Shown one piece after another: positions 3,902-43,399 of a DNA stretch of 44,447 nt. The notes beneath the pieces were generated by a model that saw nothing but the letters and a program-made list of their open reading frames with translations, was not told where the DNA came from and made no database searches. The stretch is from the NCBI GenBank assembly GCA_039030795.1, contig JBCCDM010000001.1, positions 1 to 44,447 on the forward strand, in the 5' to 3' direction. Each line of letters starts with the position of its first letter. Positions within the stretch are counted from its first letter, which is position 1. Both the position numbers and the translations under genes were made by a program. This DNA comes from Cyanobacteria bacterium P01_A01_bin.84. GTDB taxonomy: Bacteria; Cyanobacteriota; Cyanobacteriia; Cyanobacteriales; Nostocaceae.

Positions 3902-3940
3902 TTTTATAAACACAGGAATTAGTATTACTCCAAAGCCACT

Positions 3941-4532: not shown

Positions 4533-4591
4533 TGGTAGTAGCTGTAGTAGTTGGTATACTAACATTAAAACAAGCATTGAGAGGTCGGTCA

Positions 4592-21772: not shown

Positions 21773-22873
21773 ATGCTAGCGGTAATCTATAAAAAGCCAT
21801 CATTTCTTAAAACCTTGAAATATGTTTTAAGTAAAGAAGATGCTGCAATTATTACAAAGAATATTGCTGGAGAATCACCCAACACCCTGAACAAAGAATT
21901 TCTGGAAAGCAAAAATACCAATCACAGGGTTAAAAACCATTGCGCTCACTTGATTTTAAGTTTACCCAAGCAAGAAAGCGTTGATGATTTAACCATGAGT
22001 TACATTGCAGGTGATTTCCTTGAATCAATGGGATACCGCAACAGTAATAATATTACCCAAAATGTTCCGTTTGTTGCTGTACGTCATCATGATAGGGAAC
22101 ACGAGCATATTCATATAGTGGCTTCGCGGGTACGATTTGATGGTAGCTGTGTTTCTGATTCCTGGGATTATCTCAAAGCTCAGAATATAACCAGAACTAT
22201 TGCTGCTAAATATGATTTTTCTGTAGCACCAGTCAGCAGTAATGCTGTTGCACAAGATTTAGCAGCAGCAGGTATTGATGCTACCGTTAGCCCCAATCGC
22301 TCTCCTTCTATTCGTCAAATTAATGCTAGTAGTAAAGAACCTTCTTTTAAGGAAACTATTGGTAAAGCAATTGAAAATGCGCTAATCAATAGTAAAAACC
22401 TTGCTGAGTATACGTCTAATTTATACGATAGTGGCGTAGTAGTTAAAGCCAAGTTTGATGATAAAGAGTTGCTTGGCTTTTCTTATGCTTACAAGGGTAA
22501 ATATGCTGCTGGCAATCAAATATCCCGCCGCTATAGCTGGAATAATATTCAAACAGAATGGGAGTTAGAATATAGTCCTACTCGTGATTATGAACCATTA
22601 AAACAAATTGCAGAAGTTGCTATTAAGTATAGAGGTAAAGAATTACCAGCATTAAGCATTTCTCACATGGCTAACCCTCATGCTAAGCTTTATACCCAAA
22701 TGAAAGCTATGCTTAATAAATCAGAGGAGGAAGAAATTTACCCCGACATCCCGGTAGAAGATGATTTGACAGAAAAATTATCTACAGTGGAAGTTAAGGA
22801 ACTAAAAAGTAATCCCGGTAAAGATAATCAATTACCAAAAACTAAGAAGAAAAACAATCAAATTGAATTGTAA
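21773..22873 (+). CDS. MobA/VirD2-family relaxase
   Basis: The histidine triad is VAVRHHDREHEHIHIVASRV, with CAHLILSLP upstream and an N-terminal Tyr region (LKYVLSK). It is 366 aa with a Lys-rich tail. Confidence 0.75.
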   Translation: MLAVIYKKPSFLKTLKYVLSKEDAAIITKNIAGESPNTLNKEFLESKNTNHRVKNHCAHLILSLPKQESVDDLTMSYIAGDFLESMGYRNSNNITQNVPFVAVRHHDREHEHIHIVASRVRFDGSCVSDSWDYLKAQNITRTIAAKYDFSVAPVSSNAVAQDLAAAGIDATVSPNRSPSIRQINASSKEPSFKETIGKAIENALINSKNLAEYTSNLYDSGVVVKAKFDDKELLGFSYAYKGKYAAGNQISRRYSWNNIQTEWELEYSPTRDYEPLKQIAEVAIKYRGKELPALSISHMANPHAKLYTQMKAMLNKSEEEEIYPDIPVEDDLTEKLSTVEVKELKSNPGKDNQLPKTKKKNNQIEL

Positions 22874-27166: not shown

Positions 27167-27883
27167 ATGTTAAGCGATGGTGAACGCAGGCGACGGCTTT
27201 CAGCTTTGTGTAAGCGGCTCCGTGGTGATGAGTCGTTGCGTTCGTTTACTAAAAATCATAGTGAAGAACTTCAAGGTATTAGCCATTCGTCATGGAGTGC
27301 CTGGGAGGCTAGGAGAGCAGGCCTTAGTGCTGATTCTTTAGATAAATTCGCAAATTTTATTGGTTGCTCGCACCAATCTCTTTTTGCTTATTTAGATGGT
27401 TCTAAAACTTTAGATGAATTACTTCAACCAGATTTAAACATTGACGATTCAGAAGAACAATTCAACCTTTCTGGAAATGCAGCTATTACTTGGATAGAAT
27501 CTCTATCCCTTAGTGATAAATTTCTTATTACTTCGCAAGGTTTTAATTCACTTCAAACTGAACTTGATAAACTTATAGAAGAAAGAGCAGAGAAGTTAGC
27601 AGAACGAAAAGCTAAAGAACTGATTGAACAAGAAAATCAAAAGTTAATAAAAGATAAAGCCTCAGAGTTTGAAGAAGAAGTTATTCGCGAAATCGCTGGA
27701 GAAAGAGCCAAATTATTGGTAAATTTACTATCTGGCACTAATTATCCCCGTAGCGACGATATTTCAAAAGTTGCCCAGAAACTAAACTTAAAAACTGAAG
27801 ATTTAATAGAATTGTGCGATCGCCTTTATCCAAATAAATCAAAGAAAAAACATGAGCGTGGAAATACCCCTCATCTTGGGTGA
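27167..27883 (+). CDS. XRE-type HTH regulator with a coiled-coil C-terminal half
   Basis: The N-terminus is LRSFTKNHSEELQGISHSSWSAWEARRAGLSADSLDKFANFIGCS. The C-terminal half is Lys/Glu-rich and helical. Confidence 0.6.
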   Translation: MLSDGERRRRLSALCKRLRGDESLRSFTKNHSEELQGISHSSWSAWEARRAGLSADSLDKFANFIGCSHQSLFAYLDGSKTLDELLQPDLNIDDSEEQFNLSGNAAITWIESLSLSDKFLITSQGFNSLQTELDKLIEERAEKLAERKAKELIEQENQKLIKDKASEFEEEVIREIAGERAKLLVNLLSGTNYPRSDDISKVAQKLNLKTEDLIELCDRLYPNKSKKKHERGNTPHLG

Positions 27884-27893
27884 CGCTTTTCTT

Positions 27894-27968
27894 CCGAATT
27901 GAAAATTTTTCTGGTAGCTGCGATTCTTTCTCTCTCTTTAGTTGGACTCCCCTATCTTTGATTAATTT
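27894..27968. repeat. 75-bp relic homologous to an internal segment of the 559-aa gene (25121..25195)
   Basis: ccgaattgaaaatttttctggtagctgcgattctttctctctctttagttggactcccctatctttgattaat is compared with ccaaattgaaggtttttctggtagctgtgattctttttccttcttgagttggacttccctctctttaattag. Same orientation, about 80% identity by eye. Confidence 0.6.
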
Positions 27969-28076
27969 AAGAACGCAATATACTTATTAGTATTACAGTC
28001 AATACTAATTGTATAATCGCTATATTCGTAAACTCCTGAAACCCCTGTGGTATCCTAGAAAAAACTAAATTAACTT

Positions 28077-28679
28077 ATGTTAAATGATAGCGAACGCAGA
28101 CGACGGCTTTCCGTTTTGTGTAAGCGGCTCCGTGGTAATAAGTCGCTGCGTTCGTTTACTAAAAATCATAGTGAACAGCTTCAAGGTATCAGCTACGCTT
28201 CGTAGAGTGTATGGGAAAGGGGTGCAGGAAATTTAAGTCGGGATTCTTTAGAAAGATTGGTAAGTTTTATTGGTTGTTCTTACAAATCCCTTTTGAAATA
28301 CCTTAACGGCTTTATAACTTTAGAAGAATTGCTTGAGCCAACTCTACCAATCATTGATGAATCAGAAGAGGAATTAACTCTCTCCCCAGATGCAACAGCT
28401 TCTTGGATAAAATCACTCCCCCTTAAAGACCAATTATTTATTGTTTCGCAGGGTTTTCAGTCTTTTCAAAGTCATCTTGATAAACTCGTTGAAGAAGAAG
28501 CTAAAGAACTAATTAATAACGAGGTTAAAAAAGAAATTGCTCAAGAAGTCAAGGAAAATACATCTAAAACGTTACTTAGCCTATTCTCAAGTGGTGAATA
28601 TCCTAGTAAGTTAAAAATTACCAAAACCGCAGAAGAATTAAATTGGGATATTCAAGACATAATGGAAATATGCGAGTAA
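28077..28679 (+). pseudogene. paralog of the XRE regulator with an in-frame TAG (TGG->TAG) and a truncated 3' end
   Basis: From ATG 28077 the first ~120 nt are nearly identical to 27167 onward. Codon 28203-28205 is TAG where the paralog has TGG (SSWSAW vs AS*SVW). Homology to the paralog stops at about 28675, where the IS607-like element begins. Confidence 0.6.
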
Positions 28680-28960
28680 GCCATGAATTGGTGCAAAACG
28701 GATAATTCCGCGTCCTTTCCACAGTTGAATTTTGTAATCTCTCGAATAGTTCCCTTCTTTGTAGTTTTGGGAGTCGTAGACTCAACCACTCAGAGGATAG
28801 TTTCTAGAAACTACGAAGGTGCCTACTCTACACCCGCTATAAGTCCGAAGATGGCGCAACCCATCGGCACTAGCCGGACTATAGACCAGACAAGTCACCT
28901 TGCGAAGGCTTCCCCAGAGTCCACAAGGAACTCCAAGTCTTTTCGATGACGCAGTAGGGC
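28680..28960 (-). ncRNA. candidate omega-RNA scaffold of the IS607-like tnpB
   Basis: Dense nested hairpins, given in plus-strand notation: AGTTTCTAGAAACT palindrome, GAGTC-gta-GACTC, and AGTCCG..(GATGG-cgcaac-CCATC)..CGGACT. It overlaps the tnpB 3' end and runs to the inferred element end. Confidence 0.4.
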
Positions 28961-30250
28961 TTTGATTCCTACGTTTCTTGAAGCGTTGACACCGGAATGC
29001 GCGGTATACCCACTAGCTGTTTTCACCCAAGTGGCACCAGTTTCGTATACCTCTTCACCAGCCACAACTTTTTCTGGTATATGGTTCTGGCGATTCACAG
29101 GGTTGCCCCAGGGATCTAGCTTTGAGGTGTTTTTTGGGTTCACTCTCGTGGTCAAAATACCATGACGAGCAAAAGCTGCGTGTTTCACGTTGTTGTATAT
29201 TTTGGACTTGAGCCAGTAAGCGCGTTTTTGATTCGATCTTCGCGAATACTTTCCACGGCATGGCTTCAAGTTCGCAAGATGTTCAAATGCTATAACCTGA
29301 CAGCCATAACCTACCGCTAAGTTCAAAATCTGTGAAGCTACATCATAGCCCATTGCTTTTTCACGATTGCGAATCTTTTCCCACTGTTTGTGGCAAAAAC
29401 CTTTGTGAATAATACCTGTTGCATTCATTTTCAAAGCAATTCTACCTAAATCTCTCTTCCTACTAGCCACACCCTCGGGTTGTTTGATGAAATGTCTAGC
29501 TATTTCCCTAATGGTGCAACCGTCGATTTCTAGGATAGAAACTATTGCTGCGTGATCATCTAAATCTAAATCTGTAGCAAGAATACGAAATGTATCTTGC
29601 TTTGTAATTTTTGCGATTCCTCCTGTGGCGGGTACATATCTTTGTATACAAAAAGTGATGTAAGCGTGTCCATTTTTTAAGACTATTGACGGAGAACTCT
29701 TGATCCAATCTTTGCCAACAGGCTGACCTTTGTAGTGGAACTTCAGCGACATCCACTGGCTTTTGACACGAACCTTGAGCATAATGTCAAGCCCGGAGTC
29801 ATCCCAAAACATATTGCCGCAATAAACTGGCGAGAAATTGAATTTCCTGGGTTGAACTGGTGGACGATGGTGCTTGTGACGCTTTGGCCGATTCTTCCAC
29901 TTTTCGTAACGGGTTTGCCATGATTCATAAGCACCTATAGCCGCACGTATAGCAGCACGCCTGAAGTCTCTGGGGCAACCGTCAAACTCTTGAGGCAGCG
30001 GGTATTGAGCTTCAATACCACTTTTCTTTTTGCCTTGAGTCAGTATTTCATAATAACGCCAACCACTGTCGTTGCCAGTAGCAGACAAACCAGAAGGATC
30101 GGTATTGATGAGCATAAAGTAAAACTCAGCGATCTGATTGTAATAGCTTTTTATTTCCTCAAAGCCATCAAAACATTTTGCTTGCGGATACAATCTTTGT
30201 TCCGCTGATTGCGTAGCTATGCTGAATCCTTTCTTTTTGGGTATGCCCAT
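28895..30250 (-). CDS. tnpB: TnpB-like protein with an apparently incomplete RuvC triad and no zinc-finger cysteines
   Basis: RuvC-I (ILATDLDLDD) and RuvC-II (VIAFEHLANL) are present. The RuvC-III position reads AHSGVNASRNVG (expected ..ADxNAAxNI), with Gly420 at 28991-28993. The CxxC..CxxC region reads TSKLDPWGNPV...VKTASGYT. Confidence 0.75.
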   Translation of the reverse strand: MGIPKKKGFSIATQSAEQRLYPQAKCFDGFEEIKSYYNQIAEFYFMLINTDPSGLSATGNDSGWRYYEILTQGKKKSGIEAQYPLPQEFDGCPRDFRRAAIRAAIGAYESWQTRYEKWKNRPKRHKHHRPPVQPRKFNFSPVYCGNMFWDDSGLDIMLKVRVKSQWMSLKFHYKGQPVGKDWIKSSPSIVLKNGHAYITFCIQRYVPATGGIAKITKQDTFRILATDLDLDDHAAIVSILEIDGCTIREIARHFIKQPEGVASRKRDLGRIALKMNATGIIHKGFCHKQWEKIRNREKAMGYDVASQILNLAVGYGCQVIAFEHLANLKPCRGKYSRRSNQKRAYWLKSKIYNNVKHAAFARHGILTTRVNPKNTSKLDPWGNPVNRQNHIPEKVVAGEEVYETGATWVKTASGYTAHSGVNASRNVGIKALLRHRKDLEFLVDSGEAFAR

Positions 30251-30297
30251 GAGTCCGACCTCCTCTGGTTTGTTTGTATGTTCTTGTTATGTACGAT

Positions 30298-30888
30298 TTA
30301 TTCCGTTTCAGCAAACCCTGATTCAATCTTTTTTTTGATGTTTTTCTCGTAACTTCTTAGGAAATATAATTTACTACTGAATGTGTGAAATATACTCATA
30401 AAGTCGTCAAGTAATTCCTGTCTTGGGGTTTTGTACACATTATTTATCACGACAAGCGAGCAGTTGTGCTGCAAGCAAAACCACTCAACAAAGTCAAATC
30501 CAAACCTACATAACCTGTCCTTGTGAGCAACTACTATGCTTTCTATCTCTCCTGTCATAACTTCAGACATCAAGTTCAAAAACTTTTTTCGTTTAAAGCT
30601 CATTCCGGAACCAATTTCAGAGACACACCGACATCCTGGGTAATGTGACCCCAAATACTTTATCTGAGACTCAAGGTCGTCTTTTTGGCTATGTGTAAAA
30701 ACCCTCGCGTATAACACCACCTGTTTGCTTGTATCTGCTATATTTATCTTTTCTAAGCTTTTCTTATTGTATCGGCGATCCCCCCCAGGAGAACGTATGC
30801 AATCTATTAAGCCTTCATCAGCCCATCTAGCTAGCGTTTTTGGATGGAAGCCAAATTCTTTATATGCTTGATTAGGTGTTAAATACAT
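30298..30888 (-). CDS. tnpA: IS607-type serine recombinase TnpA (MerR-like HTH + resolvase domain) with the nucleophile Ser replaced by Phe
   Basis: The N-terminal HTH is LTPNQAYKEFGFHPKTLARWADEGLI..IRSPGGDRRY. The catalytic box reads VLYARVFTHSQKDDLESQ where YARVS(S/T)..Q is expected. Phe64 is codon 30697-30699. Downstream is KDRLCRFGFDF. Confidence 0.75.
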   Translation of the reverse strand: MYLTPNQAYKEFGFHPKTLARWADEGLIDCIRSPGGDRRYNKKSLEKINIADTSKQVVLYARVFTHSQKDDLESQIKYLGSHYPGCRCVSEIGSGMSFKRKKFLNLMSEVMTGEIESIVVAHKDRLCRFGFDFVEWFCLQHNCSLVVINNVYKTPRQELLDDFMSIFHTFSSKLYFLRSYEKNIKKKIESGFAETE

Positions 30889-31005
30889 ATTAGCAACGAT
30901 TTATTACTATTCGCACCAATATGTTACTAGATAAGCGTACCAGAAAAGTACGACCGAATATATTTGGATAAACCCAAAAAGCAACATAAACACAGCGCTT
31001 GATAA

Positions 31006-31662
31006 TTAATTTTTCTGTTCTTTAACATCATCAATACTTTTCAATCTAACCCTAATATCCTGCCCGACATAAAATAAATTCTGCCCAGCCAAGCAGTTGT
31101 CTAACAAAGAATCCAGCAACTTTTTATTAGTAGGAAGAACTGATAGCTTAATTTTCCTTGACGATAAATACTCCTTCGCTTCCGGTAATTTATCTGGAAC
31201 ACTAGCATTTAAATAATTATTCAAAAAATTACGACGAGCATCGTAAACTTTAATCTCTTGAGAGGTATTCTGCATGTAATATCTTTTGCTATCCCAAGAT
31301 TGCCACAATCCCGGCTTTTCTGGCAAAATTGTTTCGATACTAAAAGTATCACCTGGCTTGGTTCTGATAATACAACCTCGATTTTTATCCTCACTTAATC
31401 TAATCCAAACAACACCATCAGGTAATCTAACCCAAAAGTTATTCAACAAGTCATTACGTCCATCCACTTCAGATAAGGTTTTGATTTCATTCAATTCAGG
31501 AACTGATTCAACCAAAACATTCTTTTCAATTGGTTTCTCAGCTATTGAATTATCGGTTAATCCAACTTCTACTTTTGGTTGATTTTTACCACAACCAACG
31601 ACAACAAACAATAAAGCAAATAAAAAGTATTTATAAAGCATTTTATTCAAGAAATTTATCAA
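31006..31662 (-). CDS. putative lipoprotein
   Basis: The hydrophobic N-terminus ends in the lipobox-like LLFVVVGC-GKN. 218 aa. Confidence 0.55.
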   Translation of the reverse strand: MINFLNKMLYKYFLFALLFVVVGCGKNQPKVEVGLTDNSIAEKPIEKNVLVESVPELNEIKTLSEVDGRNDLLNNFWVRLPDGVVWIRLSEDKNRGCIIRTKPGDTFSIETILPEKPGLWQSWDSKRYYMQNTSQEIKVYDARRNFLNNYLNASVPDKLPEAKEYLSSRKIKLSVLPTNKKLLDSLLDNCLAGQNLFYVGQDIRVRLKSIDDVKEQKN

Positions 31663-32353: not shown

Positions 32354-35300
32354 ATGTCTATCATATCCAAGCATTTTGATACTCGCCTCGGTCAGAACAT
32401 TGAAGCTTACGACAAGGAAGCGAAAAAACAGCAAAAACTAAATACTTCAGCACCTAAGACAGAGAAAATCACATCACTCAAAGAAGAACTCAATAACACG
32501 CTTCTGGAATATTTTTTCCCAGACACAGAATTCTCATTCGGACACGGTGACGAGTTCACTACAATAGATGAGCTTAAAAATCATCCCGATGACCATAAAT
32601 TATTAATCTCTTCAAAATCCCGATACTTGTATGCAGACGAATCGGCATTTGAAATAGTTGACGAAATATTCCCGGATAGGAAGGATAGGGGTGCTTACGG
32701 CTCAATACTACTTGGTGAATGTAATAAGGGAAAAGATTCCCCTCCACCACTATCAGGCAAATTAAACATATTAATAGTCGATGATGAAACCGGCGAGAAT
32801 GGAGGAATTATTGACAAAGAACAAGCTTATAGACTTACTGGAGACTGTTACGGTCAAATATCGGACGAAAAGTACAAAGAACTCACCGGACATAAAGAGG
32901 GAGACAAGTACCGCGTAATTCAGCATAGATTCGGATGGAAACCCCAAGAAGCTGACGAGCAATATCGCTTCGGGAAGGGTACGTTACGTCCAATGGATTT
33001 CAATGATATACAATATGAAACTGGAAAAGACTCCAAAATTGACTTAATTGTCCCCATATCATCGCTAAAAGGAACTGACAAACAACGTCCCGGTGGTGCG
33101 CTAAAACCCCAAATCAAGCCAGGATTGTACGAGCTTGATATTTGGATTGGTGAAAAATCTTTGTCTCAGCAAGGTAAAACCGCTACTTCCCAAATATGGG
33201 CATCATTCCCAGAAGGACAGAAGGATGCTTTGGAAAAGAGCAATGCAGAGGCTTTCAAGCTGTATTACGATTCTAAAGACCCCCGCAAGCTAGCTCAACT
33301 GTATTGCGAGAAGTACGAAAAGCGTAAGAAATTTGACCAAGAACGTTTACAGAAAGAAGAAGAATTAGCAGCATCTGGTAAAACTAGCACAATATCCAAA
33401 GAAGATTTAACGCCAGATGACCAAGAAGACGAGAAATCAAACCAGGTCGAAGATTTGATGATGTATCGCTTGGTTAAAGCTGACTTAACATCAGGTCACG
33501 GTCAATTACTAGAAACAGAAAAGGTCAAGCGAGAACTAGAGAAATTTGTAGTCAGGGAATACAAAGATATTGCCACTTTCAAAAATATCACCTTTGATAG
33601 GGCAATGGTTATCCCTTCCAAAGACCTAAAAAATGGTGAAATTTGCATACCAGGTAGAATTGATGACGACAAAGAAATACTAAACTTCCGCGCACCATTC
33701 CTCAACTCAAACGGGATGTGCGTTTCGCAACAAAAGCACACCGACGATATTCTTGGTCCCGACGGTAAACCAATTGAAGGCGTAATTTGCGTATCCGACG
33801 AAACAACTGAACGCATCTACGATAGGGTAACAAAGCAAATTAAAACTGCTTTAGCTCAAGTAGATGACGAAAAAATCCTAAATAGCTTACAATCATTCGT
33901 TGAAGGTGATATTACCTCAACCAAAGATGTCAAATTCAAAGATATCGGTGATTTGGAAAATATGCAGCGGGTTCGTTTCATAGATGCTCTCAACGAACAA
34001 ATTACCGAGTTGCAAAACCTTGGATTTGAAGTAGAATTACTGCCCAGAGAAAGCGAACAGGAACGCCAAGGTAGAGACTATGACGGAGATTGTGTTGGTT
34101 TCACCCTTGCTGAAAATTTTCCCAACCTAACCGCAGAAGCGATAGAGCGTAACAAGCCGGAAAACGCTTATCTACCAACAATCAAGGAAGCTAAGCAATC
34201 CTTCTACATCGGTGAAACAACAGAGCAACCCGAATTTGAAGCAATCGCACTCCAAATGTCAGACGGCATTAGCGTTGGTGTAATCAACAATCACCTTACA
34301 GCATTAGAAGCGCTTGAATCGGAAATTGAAATTATCCGCAATTCTGGCGATCGCCAATTAATAGCTAATTATGTTGATACGCTGAAAAGCAGTTACAGTA
34401 AAGTCCTGGAAAGAAACAACAAACAAGAAGACCCTTCTAAAAAGATTCCAGAAGCGCACCGCGACCACATGGAGCGCATCACAGAACTTGCTGATGCTAC
34501 AAATAGTCCGGAGGTGGTTGATAGAATATTTGACCTTAATCGGGATTTTTATCGCAGGCTAAATGAAGAAGCTTCTTACCAGAATCAAATAGCGGTTGAT
34601 TTATTCAAATCTAATAGAATACCGGATACAGATGCCATTAAACGTAACAGCAGCTATCTGCACCGCAACGTTAATTACATCCGCGATAAAAAGCAAGAGG
34701 GAGTATATCAAAATAAAGTAGTAGAAACCACGGGATATTCCCCTACAGAAATTAATATTAGAAGAGTTAATCGTCATTTCGCCAAACATAAGCTAGAATC
34801 TCGTCCCATATCCCAATTCCAGAATTTGTTTAAGGATATTGAATTTAGCTACCAGCAAAAAGCAGAAGCTACTCTTGCTAAGAGAAATTTTGATAAGTAT
34901 TTTAACGAAGCAGCTGAACTACAAAAACGTCAGAAGATTGATGAAGGACAGTCGGTATCCGTCCGCACCAGGAGTGGTTTAAATTTTGAAATTACTAATG
35001 TCGTTAGAACCGGCAACTTTAGTAAATTAAAAGAAGCGCTTGAGCAAGATAAAGCTTTCAGAATTGAGGTAAAAGAAAGCAAAAATAAAGCCAAGCCCCA
35101 CAAATACGAGGTATACGCCCAGTTCGATAATGAAAAAAGTGCTTTGGGTCATCCTAAATACCAAAAAATTGGTACGGTAATGCGGGATAACGAACACATA
35201 TTCAAAGATATGGATTCGTTACCCAAAAATCTTGATACGAGAATCAATGAATTTAAGGCAGCTATCAGCGACGCGCAGATAAAAGTTAGGTTTGATAAAG

Positions 35301-38300
35301 CATTAGAATCAGCAGACGCATTCCGCAGTTCTATACCGGAAAACCAATTAAAACAATACGCTGCTGCTACTTGGTCAATTTCTACTAAGAGAGATACTAG
35401 CGATACCGAATTAGGTTTTAATAAAAGCGCTAGTTTCGCTTTCAATGCTTTTACAAATGAAATAGTTGATAAAATAGAAGTTCTCCAGTTCGACGAGTTT
35501 ACGGTAAGTAACCTAAAAGAAGCTGAATTACAATCTGATTCAATTGATTTTAATACTCCCCAAGAAATTAGATTCGGCGCAGCAGCAATTGATAAAGATG
35601 GCGACACTGAAATTAAAAATGTTATTCAGTTAAAGACACCAGATGGGGAATATAAAGAAATTGGGGATATTTCTGCTACTGATGGTAGATTACCGTTAGG
35701 TACCACAGCATCCGCAACAATCAGTGGTGGTAATTTATCAACTGCAACCCTTAGTATTGATAACGTTTCAGTTAAAGTTAACGAACTAAATAAATACGAT
35801 ACTAAGGTAAATTCGGGTGAAGAAATCGAAGTATTAATTCAAGAGAGTGCTAGCTACAGCGACGGAGAAACTAAGATATTTATTGGTGACGATTATCTTG
35901 GTAAACTGCGACCAGAATCTCACGAAGAAGCGGTTAAAAACAATTGGTTGCAAAATAACCAACCCTTACAATTAAAGCTTGATTCAATTGTTGATGAAGG
36001 TAAACACCCTTATGCCATCGCTACAACCGGGGAAGGAAATAAACTTTACGTCAATATTGAAGACCAGTACAAATTGATTGATGAAGAAATGCAGGCTGTA
36101 CCTAATAAATTTAAGGGGTATAGCTTTGATGCAGAACAGGTACAAGCGCGACCTATAGTAGAAAAAACAGGACAGAAACCAATTGTCTACGTTAATGATA
36201 AGCCAGTAGGAACTATCAGCCAGGAAGATTTTAAAAAGATAGAACCAACTGGAGCATCTTTAATACCAAAGCTTGCAAAAATTGAAGGCAACGTTACTAC
36301 TTTAAAAGTTAGTTTAGATAAAGAAACTGTTCAATATCCAGAAACTTGGGTAAAGGAAAGGGAAGAGGTAACTGGTAAAGAATCTATCGCTATCAACACT
36401 TCCGAAGAATCTTACAAAGTTGATGAAACTAGCAGCAAACTTTATCAAAAACTAACCACAAGACAATCAATAGCATTCGAGGATACCGTTGATAGCTATA
36501 CTAATACCTTCAGCTTAGCTGTTGATGAGCGACAACTAGAAGCCACAGAAAAATACCTTAATAAGAATAATGTTGATTTTCAAGTTACAGAAAAGGAAGA
36601 CAAACCACTTGAAACCAATAAAGGTATGCGAGTAATTACCATAGATAAGGAATCACTCGACGACAAATTATTAGAAACGATAATTAGTAGAACTGGTGGA
36701 ATAAAATCTGACAAGTTTGAAATCCCAGAAATTCCTATTATTAAAGATGAATCCGTATATTATTTTGACCCAAAAGCTAATTATGGCGACAATGAATATC
36801 CTGCAATCGGTTTAGCTGTACCCGCACCAGATAGTCACATAGTAGACGAATTCCTCGGTAAGTATAATTTAGAAATATCTGGATTTAATGATAATAATAT
36901 CTATTACTTTTCTCTTATTGATGTTGAAAATTTTCCTTATGAAAAATACAACGAATTATACCCATCATCAGAGGAAGAATTTACAGAATACAAACAAGAT
37001 TTAGTTAGGTTAAAAAAGGATTTAAGTTCGCATCTAGGTAATCCTCTTGACTTAAGTGATGAAAATAATTTCAACACTTTTGATAAAAAAGTAGAAACAA
37101 TTCAAGAAAAACTCGATACTGGTTACAGTACCTTAGAAAGAAACAGAGATATTGGAACAGAATATCAACAAGCATTACAGAAGCTACCAAAAAGACCCAA
37201 TATTGAAGGATATGTAGAGCCACCAGCGCCAGACGTGAGTATCGTCAAAAAGCGCAAAGAAGCTCGTGCGATATTGCGTATTGGAAGTGCCTATAATCCC
37301 CAAACCCAAGAAAGTGGCGCATCTGCGATACTGGTATCTAATGATGGCAAAAATCAAATTGCACAAACTGCTAATTACTACCCTTCAGAAAAGAGTGATT
37401 TAAAAGCAGCGTACCAATCATTAATTCAAGGCTTGAACGAAGCAAAGGATAGGGGATACAAAGCGGTCAGAATCGAAACTAGCAATAATAACTTATACCA
37501 AAGATTGAAGTGCAATCCTCAGTATATGCACTTTAACGGTAAGAACAAAGAGTGCGAACCCCTCCATAAACAAGCAACAGATTTAATCAAAAGCTTTGAA
37601 TGGGGAATAACTCCGAAATTTACCAGCTATAAAAAATATCCCACTGCCGCACAAGCAAACCAAGTTGCTAATAATGCAATCGCTCAGAAAAGTTCGGTTA
37701 ATGATTTTGGTAGGAGTGAGCCACAACAAGCATCCGCGACACCAAATCAAACTCAACAAGTAGCATCGGTATCATCACCTTCACCAAACCAGCCTCAACA
37801 GGCATCACCTACACCTGCACCAAAACCAACTGTAAGTAGACAATCCCCACCACCCAAACAACAAACCGCAAGCAAGAAAAGAACGGGACTTACCGAAGGA
37901 CAAAAAGAAGCTCTATCAAAGATGATGGAGTTTTCCAAACAACCAAGAACCGATAAAGATAATAACGAATTCCTGCTTGAAGGTTATGCTGGAACGGGTA
38001 AAACTTTCGTAATTCAACAATTTCTTAAAGAGGTGCGTAAGTCGGGAGAAAATCCCAGAATCGCATTTACTGCTCCTACAAACAATGCGGTCAAAGTACT
38101 TAGGCAAATGGCAGAGAAACAAGGCATGACCGGGTTTGAAGCCAAAACTACGCATAAACTCTTAGGGCTAAAAAGAAATATTGATAAGATGTCAGGTGAT
38201 GTTAATTTCACCAGAAAAAAGACAGATGATAGACCAGAGCTTAAATACGATTACATAGTTGTTGATGAAGCATCAATGCTCAATGAATCGTTATACGAAC

Positions 38301-41300
38301 ATTGCAAAGAAGCTTCTCAAGCTGGTGTCAAAATAGTCTACATGGGCGACCCGGCACAACTTCCTCCGGTGAATGAATCAGAGAGTATGGTGTTCTCCCA
38401 AGTTAAAAATCGTTCTGAGCTTACTGAGGTGGTGCGCTACGACGGCGATATGGCAAGAATCGCCGAAGATATTCGTAATAATCTTAACTCAAAAAACCCT
38501 ACGCAAATACGGAATTCTCAAGACGGAACGGTCATTGCATTATCAAAAGAAGGCTTCAAAAATAAAGTCGAGGAATTATTTACTAGCGATGAATTCAAAG
38601 CAGACAACAGCAGCATCAAAGTTATAGCTTACACAAATAATAGAGTTGATGAAATCAATAAGCTTATCAAAGACAAGCTATATGGAGAAGATGCTCCAGA
38701 ATACTTGCCGGGAATGCGAATAATCGCCCGCGACCCGGTGAAAGGTGAATTTGGTACAGCACTTGATACTGCTGAAGAGATGACAATTACCAAAGCAAAA
38801 AAGGGTAAGGACGGCAATTTAGATATATGGATGTTAGAAGGGATCACCGAGAGTGGCGAACGCGCAGAATTCGATGTACTCGACTCCAAAAGTAAACCCC
38901 AGTTTCAAAGAGAACTTAGCAATTTAAGAAAGGAAATTTACAACGAGCCTATAGCACAACGAGATTGGTTGCCCTATTATGATTTAGCCGAACGATATGG
39001 TAACGTCCGTCCAGCCTATGCAATCACGGCACATAATTCTCAAGGTAAAACTATTCCTCAAGGTATAGTAGACCAAAACAACCTTAATCTACGCCTATCA
39101 ATGGCACTCAAAGAGGAAGACGGACAAGAACGTGCCAGAGGAATTAAAGAATATAATCAACTACGATACGTAGCAATGACTCGCTTTCAAAATGCAGTTT
39201 ATGTTGGTACCAATCAAAGAGAACAAGAAATAAATCACACTCAAGTAGAAAGTACCGATAATATAGATAGGCAAAATATTCAAGAATGGGCAAGGTATGC
39301 ACCTAAAGGTAAAGAGGGCTATGAACTATCGTCGGCCGGTGATAGTAGATTCAGCGCGCTAAATGCCAAGCTCAAAGATGGCAGAACTATCGAAGAAGCA
39401 TACCAACTTGACGTTAAAGGATACCGCTCTCAAAGTGATAATTGGCGGTTGGGGAAAGGTAAGCCACCGCTGACACCAATGACAAAAGAAGAAAGCTATC
39501 AGAAATATAAGGAATTGTGGCAACAGTGGGCTAACGAAAATCCCCAGCTTATCGATGAATTAGCTCAGAAATCTCAAGGCAAGGTACTTACCGATAAATT
39601 TGCCAGCACAAATATATCCCAAGCACGCGCATTAGTTGAGATATTAAATGAACGAAATATCCAAAGTCCGCAGCAAACACCAATATCTTTACCTTCATCC
39701 CAAGAAGCAGATAAAAGTAAATCGTTAGAAATAGTAGGTAAAATCAGCGAAAGCAAAGTAGACCAATTAAGACAGCATCTAGAAACCAATTACCAACCTT
39801 TAATGGATGCTGATAAATCCAGCTATGCTCCTGGAAGACAAGTAGCTTGGGTTGAAGCAAAATGGGAGTTAAAAGATAAAGATTTCTCTCCAGGGGTTAA
39901 AGACGACAAGTTAATGGAACTTGTCAAACAAATTTACCCCGATGCTGACATAGCACTTGTCACCTATTCGGAACAGCAAGGGCAAGGTATCGATTACCAC
40001 CGAGATGATTCCTACGCCGCAGCGGAAGCACGTAGTATTAATATCGGTGATTCTATGTGGGGGTATCAAGCATCAAAACAAGGGATGGTAGCATATGACC
40101 CAAACGCAAATGATAATGCTCCAATTCAAGAATTTAAACTGGAGTCAGGAACTGTAACGCGCTTCAACTCCAAAAATCCCCATGCAGCTTTAGAAACTAG
40201 TGCAGGAAGATGGAGTATAAATGTTTGGTCGATTAAAAATGATTTAGGTAAAAATAATAGCGTCCGCGAAAAGTTTGATAAGTTTGTTGAATCCAATCAA
40301 CCACCAACTGCTGTAGTTGAAACCAATACCGATTTAACTATTAAAGAATCGGAATGGACTCGTGGTGGTGAAATCAAAATTGAGCGGAGTTACCAAAATA
40401 TACAAGATGCAAATACAGCAGGAATAATTAGATTAGGTAACGCTACTCAAACACGAGCCGCTACACCAAAAATACCAGATAATCCCCAAATATCGGGTAA
40501 AACCATACCAATGACTTGGGAATTAAACCAATCCCCCGAACTAAAAAGTGTAAGCACTACAATCGATGCTATGCGCGGTAATGGTAGAGTGCATTCCACT
40601 AGGGCACAAAACTATTACCAAACCTACGGCATCAAGGAAGGAGATATCGCCGTAGCAAAAGGTAAAGATAATAAACAAGTAGCTTTTAGAGTTGGTAAAC
40701 AATACAAAATTACCCAAGCTATAATTAATAATCCCGATTATCAAAAAGCTTGGCAAAATTGGGAGAAACATTCAGTTAAAGAACTTACCGAGAATCAAGC
40801 TGCTAAAGGGAAAGAACGACAGCTATACGGCTTATTCATGGAGCCTTTAGGTGATTATCAAAATGGTAAAATTATTCCCTTTGAACAACATAAACAGCAA
40901 GAGCGCACTCTTAATATCACCTTCGATGGTGCCTCGCGTAATAATGGTAAACCCAACGCTCAAGCTTCAGCAGCTGCGGTACTTACCAATCCAGAAGGAA
41001 GAACTAAACAAGTTAGTCAATATCTAGGAAATAAAACCAATAACGAAACCGAATTCCAAGCTGCGATTATTGGCATGAAAGCAGCCCAAAAATTTGGGTA
41101 TAAATCTATTCAAATTCAAGGTGATTCGCAGTTAGTAGTTGAAGCGCTTCAAGGCAATAGAAATATCAAAGCAGCTAATCTAAAACCCCTCTACGAAGAA
41201 GCTAAATCTTTACTGAATTCATTTGATAAAGCTGAAATTAGCTATATTCCCAGAGAGCAAAATAAAGCTGCCGATGCACTAGCTAATAAAGCCCTTGATA

Positions 41301-43399
41301 ATGCTCAAAATATCAACCCCATCGCCAATATTGAGCCAGTTACCGAAGCTACTGCCAAGCATATGGTTAAAGATAAGGCTATGGCAGAGTTTGCGACGCA
41401 GTATATCGGCATCAGTGCAGCATCACCAGATACCCCATCAAGTACCAGGAATTATGCTGAAGCCTGGGGTGATAAAGCAAATACCGGCTCCTACACCAAT
41501 AAAGATGTAATCATGATTAGTGGCTCCGGTCCCTGGCGCGGGGTAACTCAAAGTCAGATTGAGGAAAACTTTAATAAAGAATATATACCGCTACTTGATA
41601 AAGCAATTGAGGCTAAGAGTAATATCGTTGTAGGTAATGCTAAAGGAACAGATGAATTAGTAAAAAATTATCTACAAGAAAAGGGATATAAATTAGAACA
41701 AACATCAAATAACTACGCTCAGTTATCTTCTCAAACTAGAGAAATACAGGCTTCTAACAAAATTTCAAAAATCACGAGTATAGGACAGTTGGGTGCTGAT
41801 TTAGGAGCATTGGAAGCAGCCAAAAATAAAGGTATAAAAACCGGAGGTGTTGCAGCAAACGGATATTTTACAGAAAAAGGTCAAGCACCAGATTTACTTC
41901 AAGGTTACGGACTAAGTGAAGGAGAAAAAGGTAAAGGATTCGGTCAAACTTACAAAAACGCTTATTCGGCTAATATCCGCAGTAGCGATGCAACAGTATT
42001 AATAGGACGTATTCTTAATCGCAACGAAGATACAGATAAGGATTTAATTGAAATTATCAGTCGCTACAACAAACCGTGCCTAGTAATCCCCAAAGAGGAA
42101 GTATTATCTAACCCTCAAGCAGCTGGAGAAAAGATTGCTCAATTTGCATCTCAAAATAATGCTCAAAATTTAAATATAATTGGCGAGCGAGAAAGTCATG
42201 CACCGGGGATGCAAAATGCCGTACAGGAAGCTATCGGTAAAACCTTAGAGCTAAATTCTCGTACTGAGTATAAAGTTAAAAATCCACCCTTTGAGCAGAA
42301 TGCAGCAGATTTGAAAACTGAACAAGTCGCGGCTAAACAGAAAAATGAACAACCAGATAAAGAGTCATCATTCATAAAAACACAGAGCAAAAGCCAACTT
42401 ACACAAAATGTTGGTACTACTATTAGTGCCTACAGTAATGATGGTTTAGGAGCAGCTCTATCCCCAGAAACTAAGCTAGCCTCCGATAATGGTAATTTAC
42501 AGAATAATTACCCTGTTAGCTATCAAGACAATAAAGAATTACCCGCTGGTAATTATGGTGGCGAAAATTACCCAGATGTCAAACCTATAGGTCAACCCTT
42601 TGTATCAGCGAACCAAGCCTATCATGCTTACAAAGAGCCGTCAGAGCAAGCAGCACAAAAGATAGCCAGGATGACGGAAGTACTCAAAGCCAAATTAGAA
42701 CAGCACCCAAGATTAGTTAGTGCGATCGCAAAACGTGGTGGTGTTGAATTCCTTGAAAATTCCACTCATATTTCTAGTTCCCAAGATAAATTTTGGGATG
42801 GTAGAGGTAAAGAATCTAAATTTATTCAGGCTTTGAGTGCGGCTTACACCACCATAGAAAAAAGTCAAGGTAAAGTATCGACACAAGAAGCAGATTCAGT
42901 GGCTCAATCCCTCCAGAAATGGACGGAGGATGCACAATTCCTTAATCGCAATTATGTAGACACAATCAATCAAATCCAAAATATATATGCTAATACCAAA
43001 AAGCCACTAACGGAAAATCACTTAAAAACTATGGATAAAGATAGTAAGGATGCGGCAGTTACTAAAGAAGTTAAAAACCTAGTCACGCGACTTACCAATA
43101 CCTTAGTGCAGGATAATAGGGAAGACGGTTCTAAACTAGTTCAAGGTAAAAGATATATTTTAGAATCTAATCAAAATACTGGCCTTACTCGTATAACTAG
43201 TACGAGTACTGCTGATATTTTATTGAGTATAGAAAACAATCAGGTTAAAGCTAACAACCTAAATAGTGACGTATACCAATCTTTGAAATCAGCAGTGCAA
43301 GCAGTAGATGAAAAAATAAAAGCTGCTCAAGAAATAACGGGTTATAATAACAGTAATTCTGAACGCAATATGACAGAAAAAATTCAAATAGCAAAGTAA
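32354..43399 (+). CDS. 3,681-aa multidomain 'polyvalent' protein
   Basis: Uninterrupted 11,046-nt ORF. All minus-strand ORFs inside it are short shadows. The domains (RdRP/YonO-like polymerase, degenerate RNase H, Dda/RecD-like helicase, AlkB-like, RNase HI, SLOG x2, NADAR-like) are listed as separate features below. Confidence 0.9.
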   Translation: MSIISKHFDTRLGQNIEAYDKEAKKQQKLNTSAPKTEKITSLKEELNNTLLEYFFPDTEFSFGHGDEFTTIDELKNHPDDHKLLISSKSRYLYADESAFEIVDEIFPDRKDRGAYGSILLGECNKGKDSPPPLSGKLNILIVDDETGENGGIIDKEQAYRLTGDCYGQISDEKYKELTGHKEGDKYRVIQHRFGWKPQEADEQYRFGKGTLRPMDFNDIQYETGKDSKIDLIVPISSLKGTDKQRPGGALKPQIKPGLYELDIWIGEKSLSQQGKTATSQIWASFPEGQKDALEKSNAEAFKLYYDSKDPRKLAQLYCEKYEKRKKFDQERLQKEEELAASGKTSTISKEDLTPDDQEDEKSNQVEDLMMYRLVKADLTSGHGQLLETEKVKRELEKFVVREYKDIATFKNITFDRAMVIPSKDLKNGEICIPGRIDDDKEILNFRAPFLNSNGMCVSQQKHTDDILGPDGKPIEGVICVSDETTERIYDRVTKQIKTALAQVDDEKILNSLQSFVEGDITSTKDVKFKDIGDLENMQRVRFIDALNEQITELQNLGFEVELLPRESEQERQGRDYDGDCVGFTLAENFPNLTAEAIERNKPENAYLPTIKEAKQSFYIGETTEQPEFEAIALQMSDGISVGVINNHLTALEALESEIEIIRNSGDRQLIANYVDTLKSSYSKVLERNNKQEDPSKKIPEAHRDHMERITELADATNSPEVVDRIFDLNRDFYRRLNEEASYQNQIAVDLFKSNRIPDTDAIKRNSSYLHRNVNYIRDKKQEGVYQNKVVETTGYSPTEINIRRVNRHFAKHKLESRPISQFQNLFKDIEFSYQQKAEATLAKRNFDKYFNEAAELQKRQKIDEGQSVSVRTRSGLNFEITNVVRTGNFSKLKEALEQDKAFRIEVKESKNKAKPHKYEVYAQFDNEKSALGHPKYQKIGTVMRDNEHIFKDMDSLPKNLDTRINEFKAAISDAQIKVRFDKALESADAFRSSIPENQLKQYAAATWSISTKRDTSDTELGFNKSASFAFNAFTNEIVDKIEVLQFDEFTVSNLKEAELQSDSIDFNTPQEIRFGAAAIDKDGDTEIKNVIQLKTPDGEYKEIGDISATDGRLPLGTTASATISGGNLSTATLSIDNVSVKVNELNKYDTKVNSGEEIEVLIQESASYSDGETKIFIGDDYLGKLRPESHEEAVKNNWLQNNQPLQLKLDSIVDEGKHPYAIATTGEGNKLYVNIEDQYKLIDEEMQAVPNKFKGYSFDAEQVQARPIVEKTGQKPIVYVNDKPVGTISQEDFKKIEPTGASLIPKLAKIEGNVTTLKVSLDKETVQYPETWVKEREEVTGKESIAINTSEESYKVDETSSKLYQKLTTRQSIAFEDTVDSYTNTFSLAVDERQLEATEKYLNKNNVDFQVTEKEDKPLETNKGMRVITIDKESLDDKLLETIISRTGGIKSDKFEIPEIPIIKDESVYYFDPKANYGDNEYPAIGLAVPAPDSHIVDEFLGKYNLEISGFNDNNIYYFSLIDVENFPYEKYNELYPSSEEEFTEYKQDLVRLKKDLSSHLGNPLDLSDENNFNTFDKKVETIQEKLDTGYSTLERNRDIGTEYQQALQKLPKRPNIEGYVEPPAPDVSIVKKRKEARAILRIGSAYNPQTQESGASAILVSNDGKNQIAQTANYYPSEKSDLKAAYQSLIQGLNEAKDRGYKAVRIETSNNNLYQRLKCNPQYMHFNGKNKECEPLHKQATDLIKSFEWGITPKFTSYKKYPTAAQANQVANNAIAQKSSVNDFGRSEPQQASATPNQTQQVASVSSPSPNQPQQASPTPAPKPTVSRQSPPPKQQTASKKRTGLTEGQKEALSKMMEFSKQPRTDKDNNEFLLEGYAGTGKTFVIQQFLKEVRKSGENPRIAFTAPTNNAVKVLRQMAEKQGMTGFEAKTTHKLLGLKRNIDKMSGDVNFTRKKTDDRPELKYDYIVVDEASMLNESLYEHCKEASQAGVKIVYMGDPAQLPPVNESESMVFSQVKNRSELTEVVRYDGDMARIAEDIRNNLNSKNPTQIRNSQDGTVIALSKEGFKNKVEELFTSDEFKADNSSIKVIAYTNNRVDEINKLIKDKLYGEDAPEYLPGMRIIARDPVKGEFGTALDTAEEMTITKAKKGKDGNLDIWMLEGITESGERAEFDVLDSKSKPQFQRELSNLRKEIYNEPIAQRDWLPYYDLAERYGNVRPAYAITAHNSQGKTIPQGIVDQNNLNLRLSMALKEEDGQERARGIKEYNQLRYVAMTRFQNAVYVGTNQREQEINHTQVESTDNIDRQNIQEWARYAPKGKEGYELSSAGDSRFSALNAKLKDGRTIEEAYQLDVKGYRSQSDNWRLGKGKPPLTPMTKEESYQKYKELWQQWANENPQLIDELAQKSQGKVLTDKFASTNISQARALVEILNERNIQSPQQTPISLPSSQEADKSKSLEIVGKISESKVDQLRQHLETNYQPLMDADKSSYAPGRQVAWVEAKWELKDKDFSPGVKDDKLMELVKQIYPDADIALVTYSEQQGQGIDYHRDDSYAAAEARSINIGDSMWGYQASKQGMVAYDPNANDNAPIQEFKLESGTVTRFNSKNPHAALETSAGRWSINVWSIKNDLGKNNSVREKFDKFVESNQPPTAVVETNTDLTIKESEWTRGGEIKIERSYQNIQDANTAGIIRLGNATQTRAATPKIPDNPQISGKTIPMTWELNQSPELKSVSTTIDAMRGNGRVHSTRAQNYYQTYGIKEGDIAVAKGKDNKQVAFRVGKQYKITQAIINNPDYQKAWQNWEKHSVKELTENQAAKGKERQLYGLFMEPLGDYQNGKIIPFEQHKQQERTLNITFDGASRNNGKPNAQASAAAVLTNPEGRTKQVSQYLGNKTNNETEFQAAIIGMKAAQKFGYKSIQIQGDSQLVVEALQGNRNIKAANLKPLYEEAKSLLNSFDKAEISYIPREQNKAADALANKALDNAQNINPIANIEPVTEATAKHMVKDKAMAEFATQYIGISAASPDTPSSTRNYAEAWGDKANTGSYTNKDVIMISGSGPWRGVTQSQIEENFNKEYIPLLDKAIEAKSNIVVGNAKGTDELVKNYLQEKGYKLEQTSNNYAQLSSQTREIQASNKISKITSIGQLGADLGALEAAKNKGIKTGGVAANGYFTEKGQAPDLLQGYGLSEGEKGKGFGQTYKNAYSANIRSSDATVLIGRILNRNEDTDKDLIEIISRYNKPCLVIPKEEVLSNPQAAGEKIAQFASQNNAQNLNIIGERESHAPGMQNAVQEAIGKTLELNSRTEYKVKNPPFEQNAADLKTEQVAAKQKNEQPDKESSFIKTQSKSQLTQNVGTTISAYSNDGLGAALSPETKLASDNGNLQNNYPVSYQDNKELPAGNYGGENYPDVKPIGQPFVSANQAYHAYKEPSEQAAQKIARMTEVLKAKLEQHPRLVSAIAKRGGVEFLENSTHISSSQDKFWDGRGKESKFIQALSAAYTTIEKSQGKVSTQEADSVAQSLQKWTEDAQFLNRNYVDTINQIQNIYANTKKPLTENHLKTMDKDSKDAAVTKEVKNLVTRLTNTLVQDNREDGSKLVQGKRYILESNQNTGLTRITSTSTADILLSIENNQVKANNLNSDVYQSLKSAVQAVDEKIKAAQEITGYNNSNSERNMTEKIQIAK
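32900..34640 (+). other. domain: eukaryotic-RdRP / YonO-like two-barrel RNA polymerase core
   Basis: Four collinear motifs: VIQHRFGW..RFGKGTLRP (32915-32992), ILNFRAPFLNSNGMCV (33677-33724), RDYDGDCVGF (DYDGD = 34076-34090), and GISVGVINNHL (34265-34297) followed by QIAVDLFKSNRIPD (34586-34627). Confidence 0.6.
37262..37690 (+). other. domain: RNase H-fold, catalytic carboxylates apparently all substituted
   Basis: It aligns with the second RNase HI domain (..GYKAVRIETSN.. vs ..GYKSIQIQGDS..). It has G, A, T and N at the positions of the D-E-D-D tetrad. Confidence 0.5.
37888..39215 (+). other. domain: Dda/RecD/TraA-like SF1 helicase
   Basis: LTEGQKEAL, Walker A GYAGTGKTF, APTNNAVKVL, Walker B YIVVDEASML, VYMGDPAQLPPV, AITAHNSQGKT and RYVAMTRFQNAVYV. 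Confidence 0.8.
39800..40240 (+). other. domain: AlkB-like 2OG-Fe(II) dioxygenase
   Basis: GIDYHRDD (H2549-x-D2551, 39998-40006), NPHAALE (H2610, 40181-40183) and GRWSINVWS (R2619, 40208-40210). Confidence 0.6.
40909..41310 (+). other. domain: canonical RNase HI
   Basis: LNITFDGASRNNG (D2858), TNNETEFQAAI (E2898 or the Glu two residues later), IQGDSQLVV and REQNKAADALANKAL. Confidence 0.8.
41497..41700 (+). other. domain: SLOG-superfamily-like Rossmannoid (DprA/LOG/YpsA-like), weak call
   Basis: VIMISGSGPWRG ... NIVVGNAKGTDELVKNYLQEKGY resembles the Gly-rich loop plus the G-x-A-x-G-x-D signature. Confidence 0.35.
41765..42250 (+). other. domain: YpsA / 'molybdenum-cofactor-carrier'-type SLOG domain
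   Basis: ITSIGQLGADLGALEAAKNKGIKTGGVAANGYFTEKG ... NIRSSDATVLIG ... KPCLVI ... LNIIGERESHAPG matches the GGQTGxDRAALDxA..GG.CPxGR..E..NVAGPRES pattern. Confidence 0.6.
42411..42870 (+). other. domain: NADAR (YbiA/DUF1768)-like
   Basis: FVSANQAYHAYK (cf. F.S.EH.FQA.K), KLEQHPRLVSAIAKRGGVEFLENS (cf. KF.QNP.L...LL.TG...L.E.S), DKFWDGRG (cf. D..WG.G) and FIQALSAAY. Confidence 0.5.

Follow-up and report, generated by a model that had tools for sequence, protein, structure and literature searches.

The DNA analysed here, referred to below as the window, is a stretch of 44,447 nucleotides of contig JBCCDM010000001.1 from Cyanobacteria bacterium P01_A01_bin.84 (assembly GCA_039030795.1, Nostocaceae), and it contains one copy of an element of about 2.28 kb with the organization of an insertion sequence (IS) of the IS607 family: a gene for the serine recombinase TnpA, a co-oriented gene for a TnpB-like protein and a structured 3' region that ends at the right end of the element (Table 1). 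Both open reading frames (ORFs) are uninterrupted on the minus strand, as had been noticed in a first-pass annotation of this DNA, which regarded the two encoded enzymes as disarmed and offered two readings of the element, i.e., early decay of an immobilised IS or its exaptation into an RNA-guided regulator similar to TldR. Results of our analysis indicate that the view of a disarmed enzyme holds for TnpA, which has lost its nucleophile (S64F), while in the case of the TnpB-like protein it is doubtful, as the loss of the RuvC-III Asp coincides with the gain of another Asp two residues past the RuvC-I Asp.

The limits of the element, as determined by homology to related copies, are close to those proposed initially (28676-30990). 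Its left end (LE) begins with GTCGTAC at 30954, its right end (RE) finishes with GGCTTACTC at 28674, and a TC dinucleotide is present at each junction (30953-30952 and 28675-28674). The left ends of the family copies start with GTC, and the RE consensus over about 40 loci is ...GG(C/T)TAC(T/A)C, with unrelated sequence beyond it. The trinucleotide TCG located 5' of GTC, common to the window copy and the Rivularia copy L001, was considered as a part of LE and rejected, since the copy L081 has CTG at this place, which assigns these nucleotides to the flank. An 11-nt subterminal motif of LE, TTCGCACCAAT (30910-30920), is inverted with respect to ATTGGTGCAAA of RE (28687-28697). In relatives, the equivalent places of LE and RE are occupied by GGAGT / ACTCC repeats, with GGTGC replacing GGAGT in the lineage of the window copy. 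These inverted subterminal motifs are probably the binding sites of TnpA.

Table 1. Features of the IS607-family element and of its insertion site (coordinates in the window)
Feature	Position	Strand	Basis or remarks
Whole IS607-family element, ~2.28 kb	28674..30954	minus	Homology limits relative to L001, L081 and other family copies
Left end (LE), upstream of tnpA	30889..30954	minus	Carries subterminal motif
tnpA, IS607-type serine recombinase, 196 aa	30298..30888	minus	Uninterrupted ORF; ORF list, NCBIfam, Pfam
tnpA codon 37, GAT (Asp)	30778..30780	minus	His in ~96% of relatives (GGHRRY, helix-turn-helix domain)
tnpA codon 64, TTT (Phe)	30697..30699	minus	Catalytic Ser position of YARVS(T/S); TnpA reads VVLYARVFTHSQ
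tnpB-like gene, 451 aa	28895..30250	minus	Intact, uninterrupted ORF; GGAGG ribosome-binding site upstream
RuvC-I box D227-L-D229	29564..29572	minus	D227, canonical Asp; D229, clade-specific extra Asp
RuvC-II Glu323, box AFEHL	29282..29284	minus	Aligns with Glu of canonical VFEHL
Cys-less counterpart of C4 zinc-finger (TNB) region, residues 372-416	29003..29137	minus	Aligns with CxxC...CxxC
RuvC-III box H418-S419-G420 in place of N-A-D	28991..28999	minus	Register from Cas12f; Gly420 codon GGT at 28993-28991; protein reads ...GYTAHSGVNASRNVG / AHSGVNASRNVG
Conserved structured RNA scaffold (omega-RNA / reRNA-like), ~240 nt	28674..28915	minus	Covariation
Predicted guide portion, GCAUAUUUCCAUUAUGUC	28656..28673	minus	Flank directly 3' of scaffold
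Interrupted target gene, pseudogene	28077..28676	plus	tblastn, 50% identity to paralogue 27167-27883
Displaced C-terminal tail of interrupted gene	30955-31002	plus	RIYLDKPKKQHKHSA and stop; matches RLYPNKSKKKHERGN of paralogue

Neither terminal inverted repeats nor a target-site duplication were found in the case of the window element. In this respect, as well as in the serine-recombinase type of TnpA with an N-terminal MerR-like helix-turn-helix (HTH) domain, the co-oriented tnpA-tnpB order, a core dinucleotide shared by the two junctions, the short subterminal motifs in inverted orientation and a guide-RNA scaffold that stops at RE on the core dinucleotide, the element resembles IS607 of H. 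pylori and the IS607 IStron of C. botulinum (Zedaveinyte et al.). However, its core is TC (G-TC at LE, ACTC at RE), while that of the C. botulinum element is GG (transposon-associated motif, TAM, TGGG; RE UCGG), and, unlike the IStron, it has no group I intron. The window copy differs from IS607 also in that its TnpA is devoid of the nucleophile and its TnpB belongs to a non-canonical clade. By descent and architecture, it is an IS607-family IS, in which an active nucleophile is the only missing family feature, and missing in this copy only; the element is thus non-autonomous though a family member by descent. No other IS607 tnpA was detectable in the window.

TnpA scores 176.5 bits against the NCBIfam model NF033518 (IS607 family transposase, cutoff 110) and has the organization of a small serine recombinase, with an N-terminal MerR-like HTH domain (Pfam HTH_17/MerR, residues 2-47) and a C-terminal catalytic domain (Pfam Resolvase, residues 57-181). 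Its recombinase box reads YARVFTHSQ. In the alignment with relatives that are 56-91% identical to TnpA, the nucleophile column contains Ser in 118/118 relatives and Phe in the window protein only, which bears out the initial assignment of Phe64 to this position. Both L001 and L081, the nearest of the relatives whose DNA was compared, have TCT as codon 64, so S64F is a single C>T transition, as had been supposed. TnpA has one more private change at a conserved site, H37D, which requires two base changes. As T65 and S67 are present also in the relatives that have Ser64, these residues are not compensatory. In the only IS607 TnpA that has been investigated in detail, the equivalent change (S67A in that protein) was shown experimentally to abolish excision and integration (10.1101/2023.11.20.567912).

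Only one base separates the Phe64 codon from the TCT of relatives, and it could be supposed that TnpA is intact and TTT is a sequencing or assembly error, which the first-pass annotation had named as a potential refutation. This explanation is scarcely credible. The exact protein with F64 is encoded on contigs from three Logan run assemblies (SRR22824269, SRR22824304, and SRR22824307), which are 100% identical to the window across 3.1-5.9 kb, codon 64 included; the finding of an identical sequence in three separate runs makes a read error at this codon unlikely, and H37D, with its two base changes, is a second private change in the same gene. The ratio of nonsynonymous to synonymous substitution rates (dN/dS) of tnpA is about 0.02 in comparisons with L001 and L081, which indicates that strong constraint acted on tnpA through almost its entire history, until recently. 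Judging from its sequence, the window TnpA is catalytically dead due to the private S64F substitution, and this copy cannot move by means of its own transposase. Damage to tnpA was found also in other copies: in L001, about 100 bp are inserted close to the 5' end of this gene (L001 3325-3428), and the truncated tnpA of L049 (about 3567-3971) reads YGRVAT, with Ala at the nucleophile position. The damage in both of them is independent of that in the window.

The TnpB-like protein scores below the cutoffs of the curated models, i.e., 47 bits against NCBIfam NF040570 (guided_TnpB, cutoff 100) and 18.2 against Pfam TNB (cutoff 26.3), and the only matches in a profile search against PDB sequences were weak ones, to the C-terminal portion of Cas12f (E about 2e-3). 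The precomputed Pfam family PF27142 'Aq_aa04', to which these proteins are assigned, also spans canonical, zinc-finger-bearing outgroups, and a literature search with its name and number returned unrelated papers only. An AlphaFold2 (AF2) model based on the family alignment has a predicted local distance difference test (pLDDT) score of 91.3 and a predicted template modelling (pTM) score of 0.82 at full length, with pLDDT of about 94-96 in the Cys-less region. The top Foldseek matches of this model are Cas12f (E = 7e-14), TnpB of the IS607 element ISFba1, and Cas12g, and the model has the WED-REC-RuvC architecture of TnpB.

The register of the catalytic residues was established by the alignment of the family profile with solved Cas12f structures, in which 'hsgLNAARNI' is placed over 'NADfNAsqNI' / 'NADYNAARNI', and 'TSrldpwgn' over 'TSQRCSRCG'. 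In canonical relatives, the RuvC-I Asp is found at the position of D227, and the RuvC-II Glu at that of E323. Of the canonical RuvC D-E-D triad, the window protein has therefore the first two residues and Gly at position 420, and none of the four zinc-ligand positions of the C4 zinc finger is occupied by Cys. All these assignments agree with what had been read from the letters: the presence of the RuvC-I Asp and RuvC-II Glu, Gly420 at the place of the RuvC-III Asp and the absence of the zinc-finger cysteines.

A search of a large protein collection revealed 214 homologues of the TnpB-like protein, and all those with names are cyanobacterial, as are the loci collected from representative genomes (80/80). 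Conservation was counted in the alignment of 111 cyanobacterial clade members, 43-69% identical to the window TnpB. Asp227 of RuvC-I, Asp229, Glu323 of RuvC-II, Ser419, Asn422, and Arg425 are present in 111/111 sequences each, Asp231 in 108/111, and His418 in 103/111. Position 420 is Gly in 108/111 and Asp or Glu in 0/111, and no column of the former zinc-finger region contains more than 9 Cys. Orthologs with the same substitutions, which were to be looked for according to the first-pass annotation, exist in the case of TnpB, while Phe64 of TnpA occurs in the window only. The box H-S-G-(L/I/V)-N-A was detected in 45/80 loci and its H-A-G variant in one more; the motif scan was blank for the remaining loci, where either the match was partial or cut short, or His was demanded by the scan at position 418. 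The values of tnpB dN/dS (0.059 in comparison with L001 and 0.072 with L081) indicate strong purifying selection on the clade, and the differences between the window TnpB and that of L001 are mostly conservative. Together, the H-S-G box and the Cys-less region represent a fixed, ancestral signature of the clade and not a result of decay.

The dense structure that had been ascribed to the 3' region of the element finds support in covariation and not in folding energy, which for this region alone is not better than that of shuffled sequences (z = -1.15). The positions 27800-31300 gave, at permissive Rfam thresholds, only a chance hit to the iron-responsive element (IRE), and no match to RAGATH-18 or other families. 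The case for the 3' structure rests thus on the alignment of 34 related loci, from which the covariation was computed. The scaffold consensus comprises 37 pairs in 8 helices, with compensatory double changes in 31 of the pairs. Paired cells account for 92.9% as compared to about 40% when the partners are slid by 1-3 columns, and the covariation score is 0.593 versus about 0.09 in the slid controls and 0.24 in shuffles, with 0/500 shuffles reaching the observed value. The 5' start of the scaffold is within the last codons of tnpB (28915), and its 3' end is located exactly at RE (28674), as expected of a structured RNA that overlaps the tnpB 3' end. All related loci diverge immediately after ...ACTC. 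In its layout, the 3' RNA corresponds to a TnpB omega-RNA / reRNA, whose guide is derived from the flank. By analogy to IS607 TnpB, the flank at 28656-28673 would act as the guide in the window copy.

A full tnpA with the YARVST motif is present directly upstream of the tnpB-like gene at about 19 loci, and the other loci have tnpA fragments or none. Fragments or absence of tnpA are usual for IS605 and IS607 elements. Two pairs of nearly identical copies occupy different chromosomal sites: L022 and L023 of Phormidium R1S1 (2202 bp, 99.95% identical) and L053 and L055 of Calothrix NIES-4105 (2323 bp, 100% identical), and in both pairs the homology stops abruptly at each end. The clade has thus recently transposed in other genomes, and its mobility is documented in these relatives only. 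It is a large, exclusively cyanobacterial and evidently successful IS607/TnpB lineage.

These data bear on the proposal that the element is at an early stage of decay after its immobilisation, with both genes drifting and the TnpB substitutions representing fresh damage. Two private hits at conserved positions of TnpA (S64F and H37D), the location of the element in a pseudogene and the deviation of the window TnpB at 10/133 conserved columns, as compared to the family median of 3, would be in line with such a scenario. Nevertheless, we consider it very improbable, as the whole clade, including members at about 33% identity, has both the H-S-G box and the Cys-less region, most deviations of the window TnpB are common to L001 and so represent features of the lineage, tnpB dN/dS is 0.06, and the window copy retains 33/37 of the consensus scaffold pairs, the same as L001. 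Decay is accepted by us for TnpA, and refuted for TnpB by the family alignment.

The clade was placed among its relatives, which were collected in a HMMER scan of 1.8 billion cluster representatives and in a further search from the sister lineage. Outgroups, among them Ktedonobacteria and other cyanobacteria, have D-L-N in RuvC-I, VFEHL in RuvC-II, the CxxC...CxxC zinc finger and (N/H)-A-D in RuvC-III; the residue at the RuvC-I +2 position is G or N in canonical relatives. In the neighbour-joining tree, the Cys-less cyanobacterial clade is nested inside the canonical TnpBs that bear the zinc finger, and it consists of three branches. Members of the first one have D-L-N in RuvC-I and N-A-D-L-N in RuvC-III. 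Members of the second one also have D-L-N in RuvC-I, while their RuvC-III acid is shifted by one residue (S-G-E-N, A-S-E-N, A-S-D-N). The third branch, which includes the window protein, has D-x-D in RuvC-I and (H/N)-(S/A)-G-(L/Y)-N, with no acid, in RuvC-III. Asp at the RuvC-I +2 position is present in every sequence without the RuvC-III acid and in none that retains it.

Two groups recovered in these searches deserve a separate mention. In the sister lineage (P0250 and P0396-P0409, from Calothrix NIES-4071, Scytonema NUACC26 and others), VFENL replaces VFEHL in RuvC-II, and the acid-shifted sister lineage is present in multiple copies in Calothrix NIES-4071. Ten distant representatives (P0279, P0283, P0297, P0307, P0313, P0327, P0329, P0358, P0384, and P0389) are TnpB-like proteins of about 400-450 aa that keep the CxxC...C..H zinc site and have all three catalytic positions replaced (e.g., V-A-F, P-N-Y, and N-T-A-L-N); by their sequences, they look like a fully inactivated clade.

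In the RNase H fold, the residue at position +2 of the beta-1 Asp is on the same side as this Asp and lines the metal site. Such a geometry means that a change of G or N to D at this position could replace the lost ligand. In lineages known to be dead, those catalytic residues that are left deteriorate. The invariance of D227 and E323, together with the fact that the loss of the RuvC-III acid is matched by the gain of Asp at +2, favours a rearranged site, and the replacement of a catalytic residue in the whole clade with retention of the others is what characterizes catalytically rearranged TnpBs. The nuclease site of the clade is thus probably rearranged and still active. We propose that the third carboxylate may have been relocated from the RuvC-III helix to D229, two residues past the RuvC-I Asp, and that the conserved His418 may assist catalysis. 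The explanation of the whole that we consider the best, and hold to be fairly likely, is an IS607 copy with TnpA killed by S64F, intact TnpB, RNA and ends, and a rearranged RuvC site that is fixed in the clade.

Several points weigh against this explanation. D229 and H418 are candidates for residues located near D227 and E323, and they were indicated by sequence comparisons. The association of D-x-D with x-S-G is one evolutionary event, and so a correlation and not replicated evidence. The invariance of D227 and E323 could reflect a need for RNA processing or folding and not for DNA cleavage. Our literature search for experiments on cyanobacterial TnpBs found nothing on this clade. In about 20 independent insertions, only the G that precedes the TC core is conserved upstream of LE, and no TAM-like motif was found 5' of the G-TC junction. 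Finally, S64F is undatable, as the nearest relative is at dS above 1.

The main alternative is that TnpB of the whole clade is nuclease-dead and serves the transposon as an RNA-guided DNA-binding factor. The role of such a factor might be to mark or protect the donor joint, to guide TnpA or control it, or to repress a promoter in the flank. The absence of the canonical RuvC-III Asp in 111/111 sequences, the loss of the zinc finger and the NCBIfam score well under the guided_TnpB cutoff would be expected of such a protein. Moreover, Cas12k, Cas12m, and TldR are known dead relatives with RNA-guided binding, and a conserved RNA scaffold is needed also for binding alone. On the other hand, known dead lineages show both deterioration of catalytic residues and loss of the transposon context, while this clade retains D227 and E323 without exception, the loss of the old Asp is accompanied exactly by the emergence of a new invariant one, and the sister lineage keeps the acid by a different route. 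We consider this alternative unlikely, albeit one to be taken seriously. The more specific proposition that it entails, of an actively transposing TnpB clade without DNA cleavage, which maintains or directs the IS607 element by RNA-guided binding alone, appears to us likewise doubtful, if anything a shade more so.

The rearranged site favoured here is of the same general kind as those of the catalytically rearranged TnpB classes RIIr and RIIIr, described by Altae-Tran et al. 2023 (PMC10691335). Their RIIIr-4 branch is characterized by the replacement of the RuvC-III Asp with His and by the lack of the C4 zinc finger; a clade without the zinc finger and with an altered RuvC-III is presumed active in that paper, and the loss of the zinc finger is known for some TnpB branches. 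The clade of the window TnpB shares with RIIr / RIIIr the clade-wide replacement of the RuvC-III Asp, the loss of the zinc finger, the retained association with a transposase, and activity that is presumed from conservation. It differs from them in having Gly at the canonical position, a conserved His two residues earlier, and the candidate replacement acid in RuvC-I (+2). Cyanobacterial, IS607-associated TnpBs with a non-standard RuvC signature are known also as pro-Fanzor TnpBs (Yoon et al. 2023, PMC10711439), which have D-P-G in RuvC-I, a relocated RuvC-II Glu, an intact CxxC zinc finger, and the RuvC-III Asp. Identity with them was rejected, since the clade has D-x-D, Glu at the canonical position, no zinc finger and no RuvC-III Asp.

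With TldR and Cas12k the clade shares the TnpB/Cas12 fold, the lack of a canonical RuvC residue and a conserved guide-RNA scaffold. However, TldR and Cas12k no longer belong to an IS, being associated with host genes or Tn7-like transposons, and their remaining catalytic residues decay, whereas the clade stays in mobile IS607 elements with D, E and the extra D invariant. A direct relationship to Cas12k was dropped, as the profile search did not reach Cas12k and ShCas12k was at rank 42 in the fold search.

The suggestion of the first-pass annotation that the window copy is undergoing local exaptation into a TldR-like regulator of the host or plasmid must be viewed against the same background. 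TldRs have no tnpA and no LE or RE, are tied to specific host genes, and have guides that match promoters. A dead transposase beside intact TnpB and RNA does resemble the first step of domestication, and the element resides on a plasmid-like replicon. However, tnpA, both ends and the scaffold are retained here, and relatives of the element are multi-copy at varied sites, with identical copies at different sites. A search of the window with up to 3 mismatches revealed no second match to the predicted guide, only its own flank in the pseudogene, and thus no match to a promoter elsewhere in the window. For these reasons, exaptation of this kind is not sustained by our data, and we regard it as highly improbable, even more so than the decay of both genes.

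If the rearranged site is active, the role of TnpB in this lineage may be envisaged as follows. TnpB with its RNA would recognize the empty donor joint, i.e., a short motif that ends in the TC core together with the flank that matches the guide. TnpB would cut this joint, and recombination would then reinstate the element. In the window copy, the resident TnpA cannot make empty sites, which would leave TnpB little to act on, and the copy would be movable only if a related TnpA acts in trans.

For annotation, these findings mean that the lack of the RuvC-III Asp and of the zinc-finger cysteines in a TnpB should not be taken as inactivation until the clade is checked. The cyanobacterial lineage forms a natural series, from the zinc-finger N-A-D form, through the Cys-less N-A-D form, to two alternatives, in which either the acid is shifted by one residue, or the RuvC-III acid is lost and an Asp is gained beside the RuvC-I Asp. 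This series could reveal the plasticity of the RuvC site, and the clade may offer compact, zinc-independent RNA-guided enzymes. Should the clade be nuclease-dead yet mobile, the current explanation for the presence of TnpB in insertion sequences would have to be revised, and binding alone, if true, would be a function of transposon-resident TnpB beyond the known cut-and-copy homing. The window locus itself is ordinary.

The element is inserted in a gene that is in tandem with its paralogue, an HTH-like ORF (27167-27883, plus strand). In the interrupted gene, a Trp codon of the paralogue is already replaced by an in-frame stop (28203-28205); together with the IS insertion, this makes it a pseudogene hit twice. 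When the element is removed with one TC kept, the reconstructed empty site reads TGC GAC CGA, the reading frame is restored, and the product, ...EICDRIYLDKPKK, matches ...ELCDRLYPNKSKK of the neighbouring paralogue. In terms of sequence, such an empty site fits a serine-recombinase crossover at the TC core without target duplication. A megablast search of PLSDB plasmids with the element gave no match. The presence of genes encoding ParB (8502-9494), a zeta-toxin / KfrB fusion (16612-17775), and a MobA/VirD2 relaxase (21773-22873) indicates that the window is a part of a plasmid or of another conjugative or mobilisable replicon. The window copy is thus a stranded IS with a dead transposase, located inside a pseudogene on a plasmid-like replicon.

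Two other genes of the window were noted. The product of 4532-5926 (plus strand) is a second TnpB, unrelated to the first one, which matches Pfam OrfB_IS605 and TNB; it has the canonical D-L-G, Glu, and N-A-D-L-N, and its zinc-finger region is without cysteines (YTSKSSYLDGDSL). An ORF of 3681 aa at 32354-43399 (plus strand), for most of which there is no Pfam match, contains an SF1 (RecD/PIF1-like) helicase domain (residues 1846-2085, approximately), two stretches that give RNase H-like RVT_3 matches (the best one at 2867-2980), and, near the positions 3140-3296, a circularly permuted YpsA SLOG domain.

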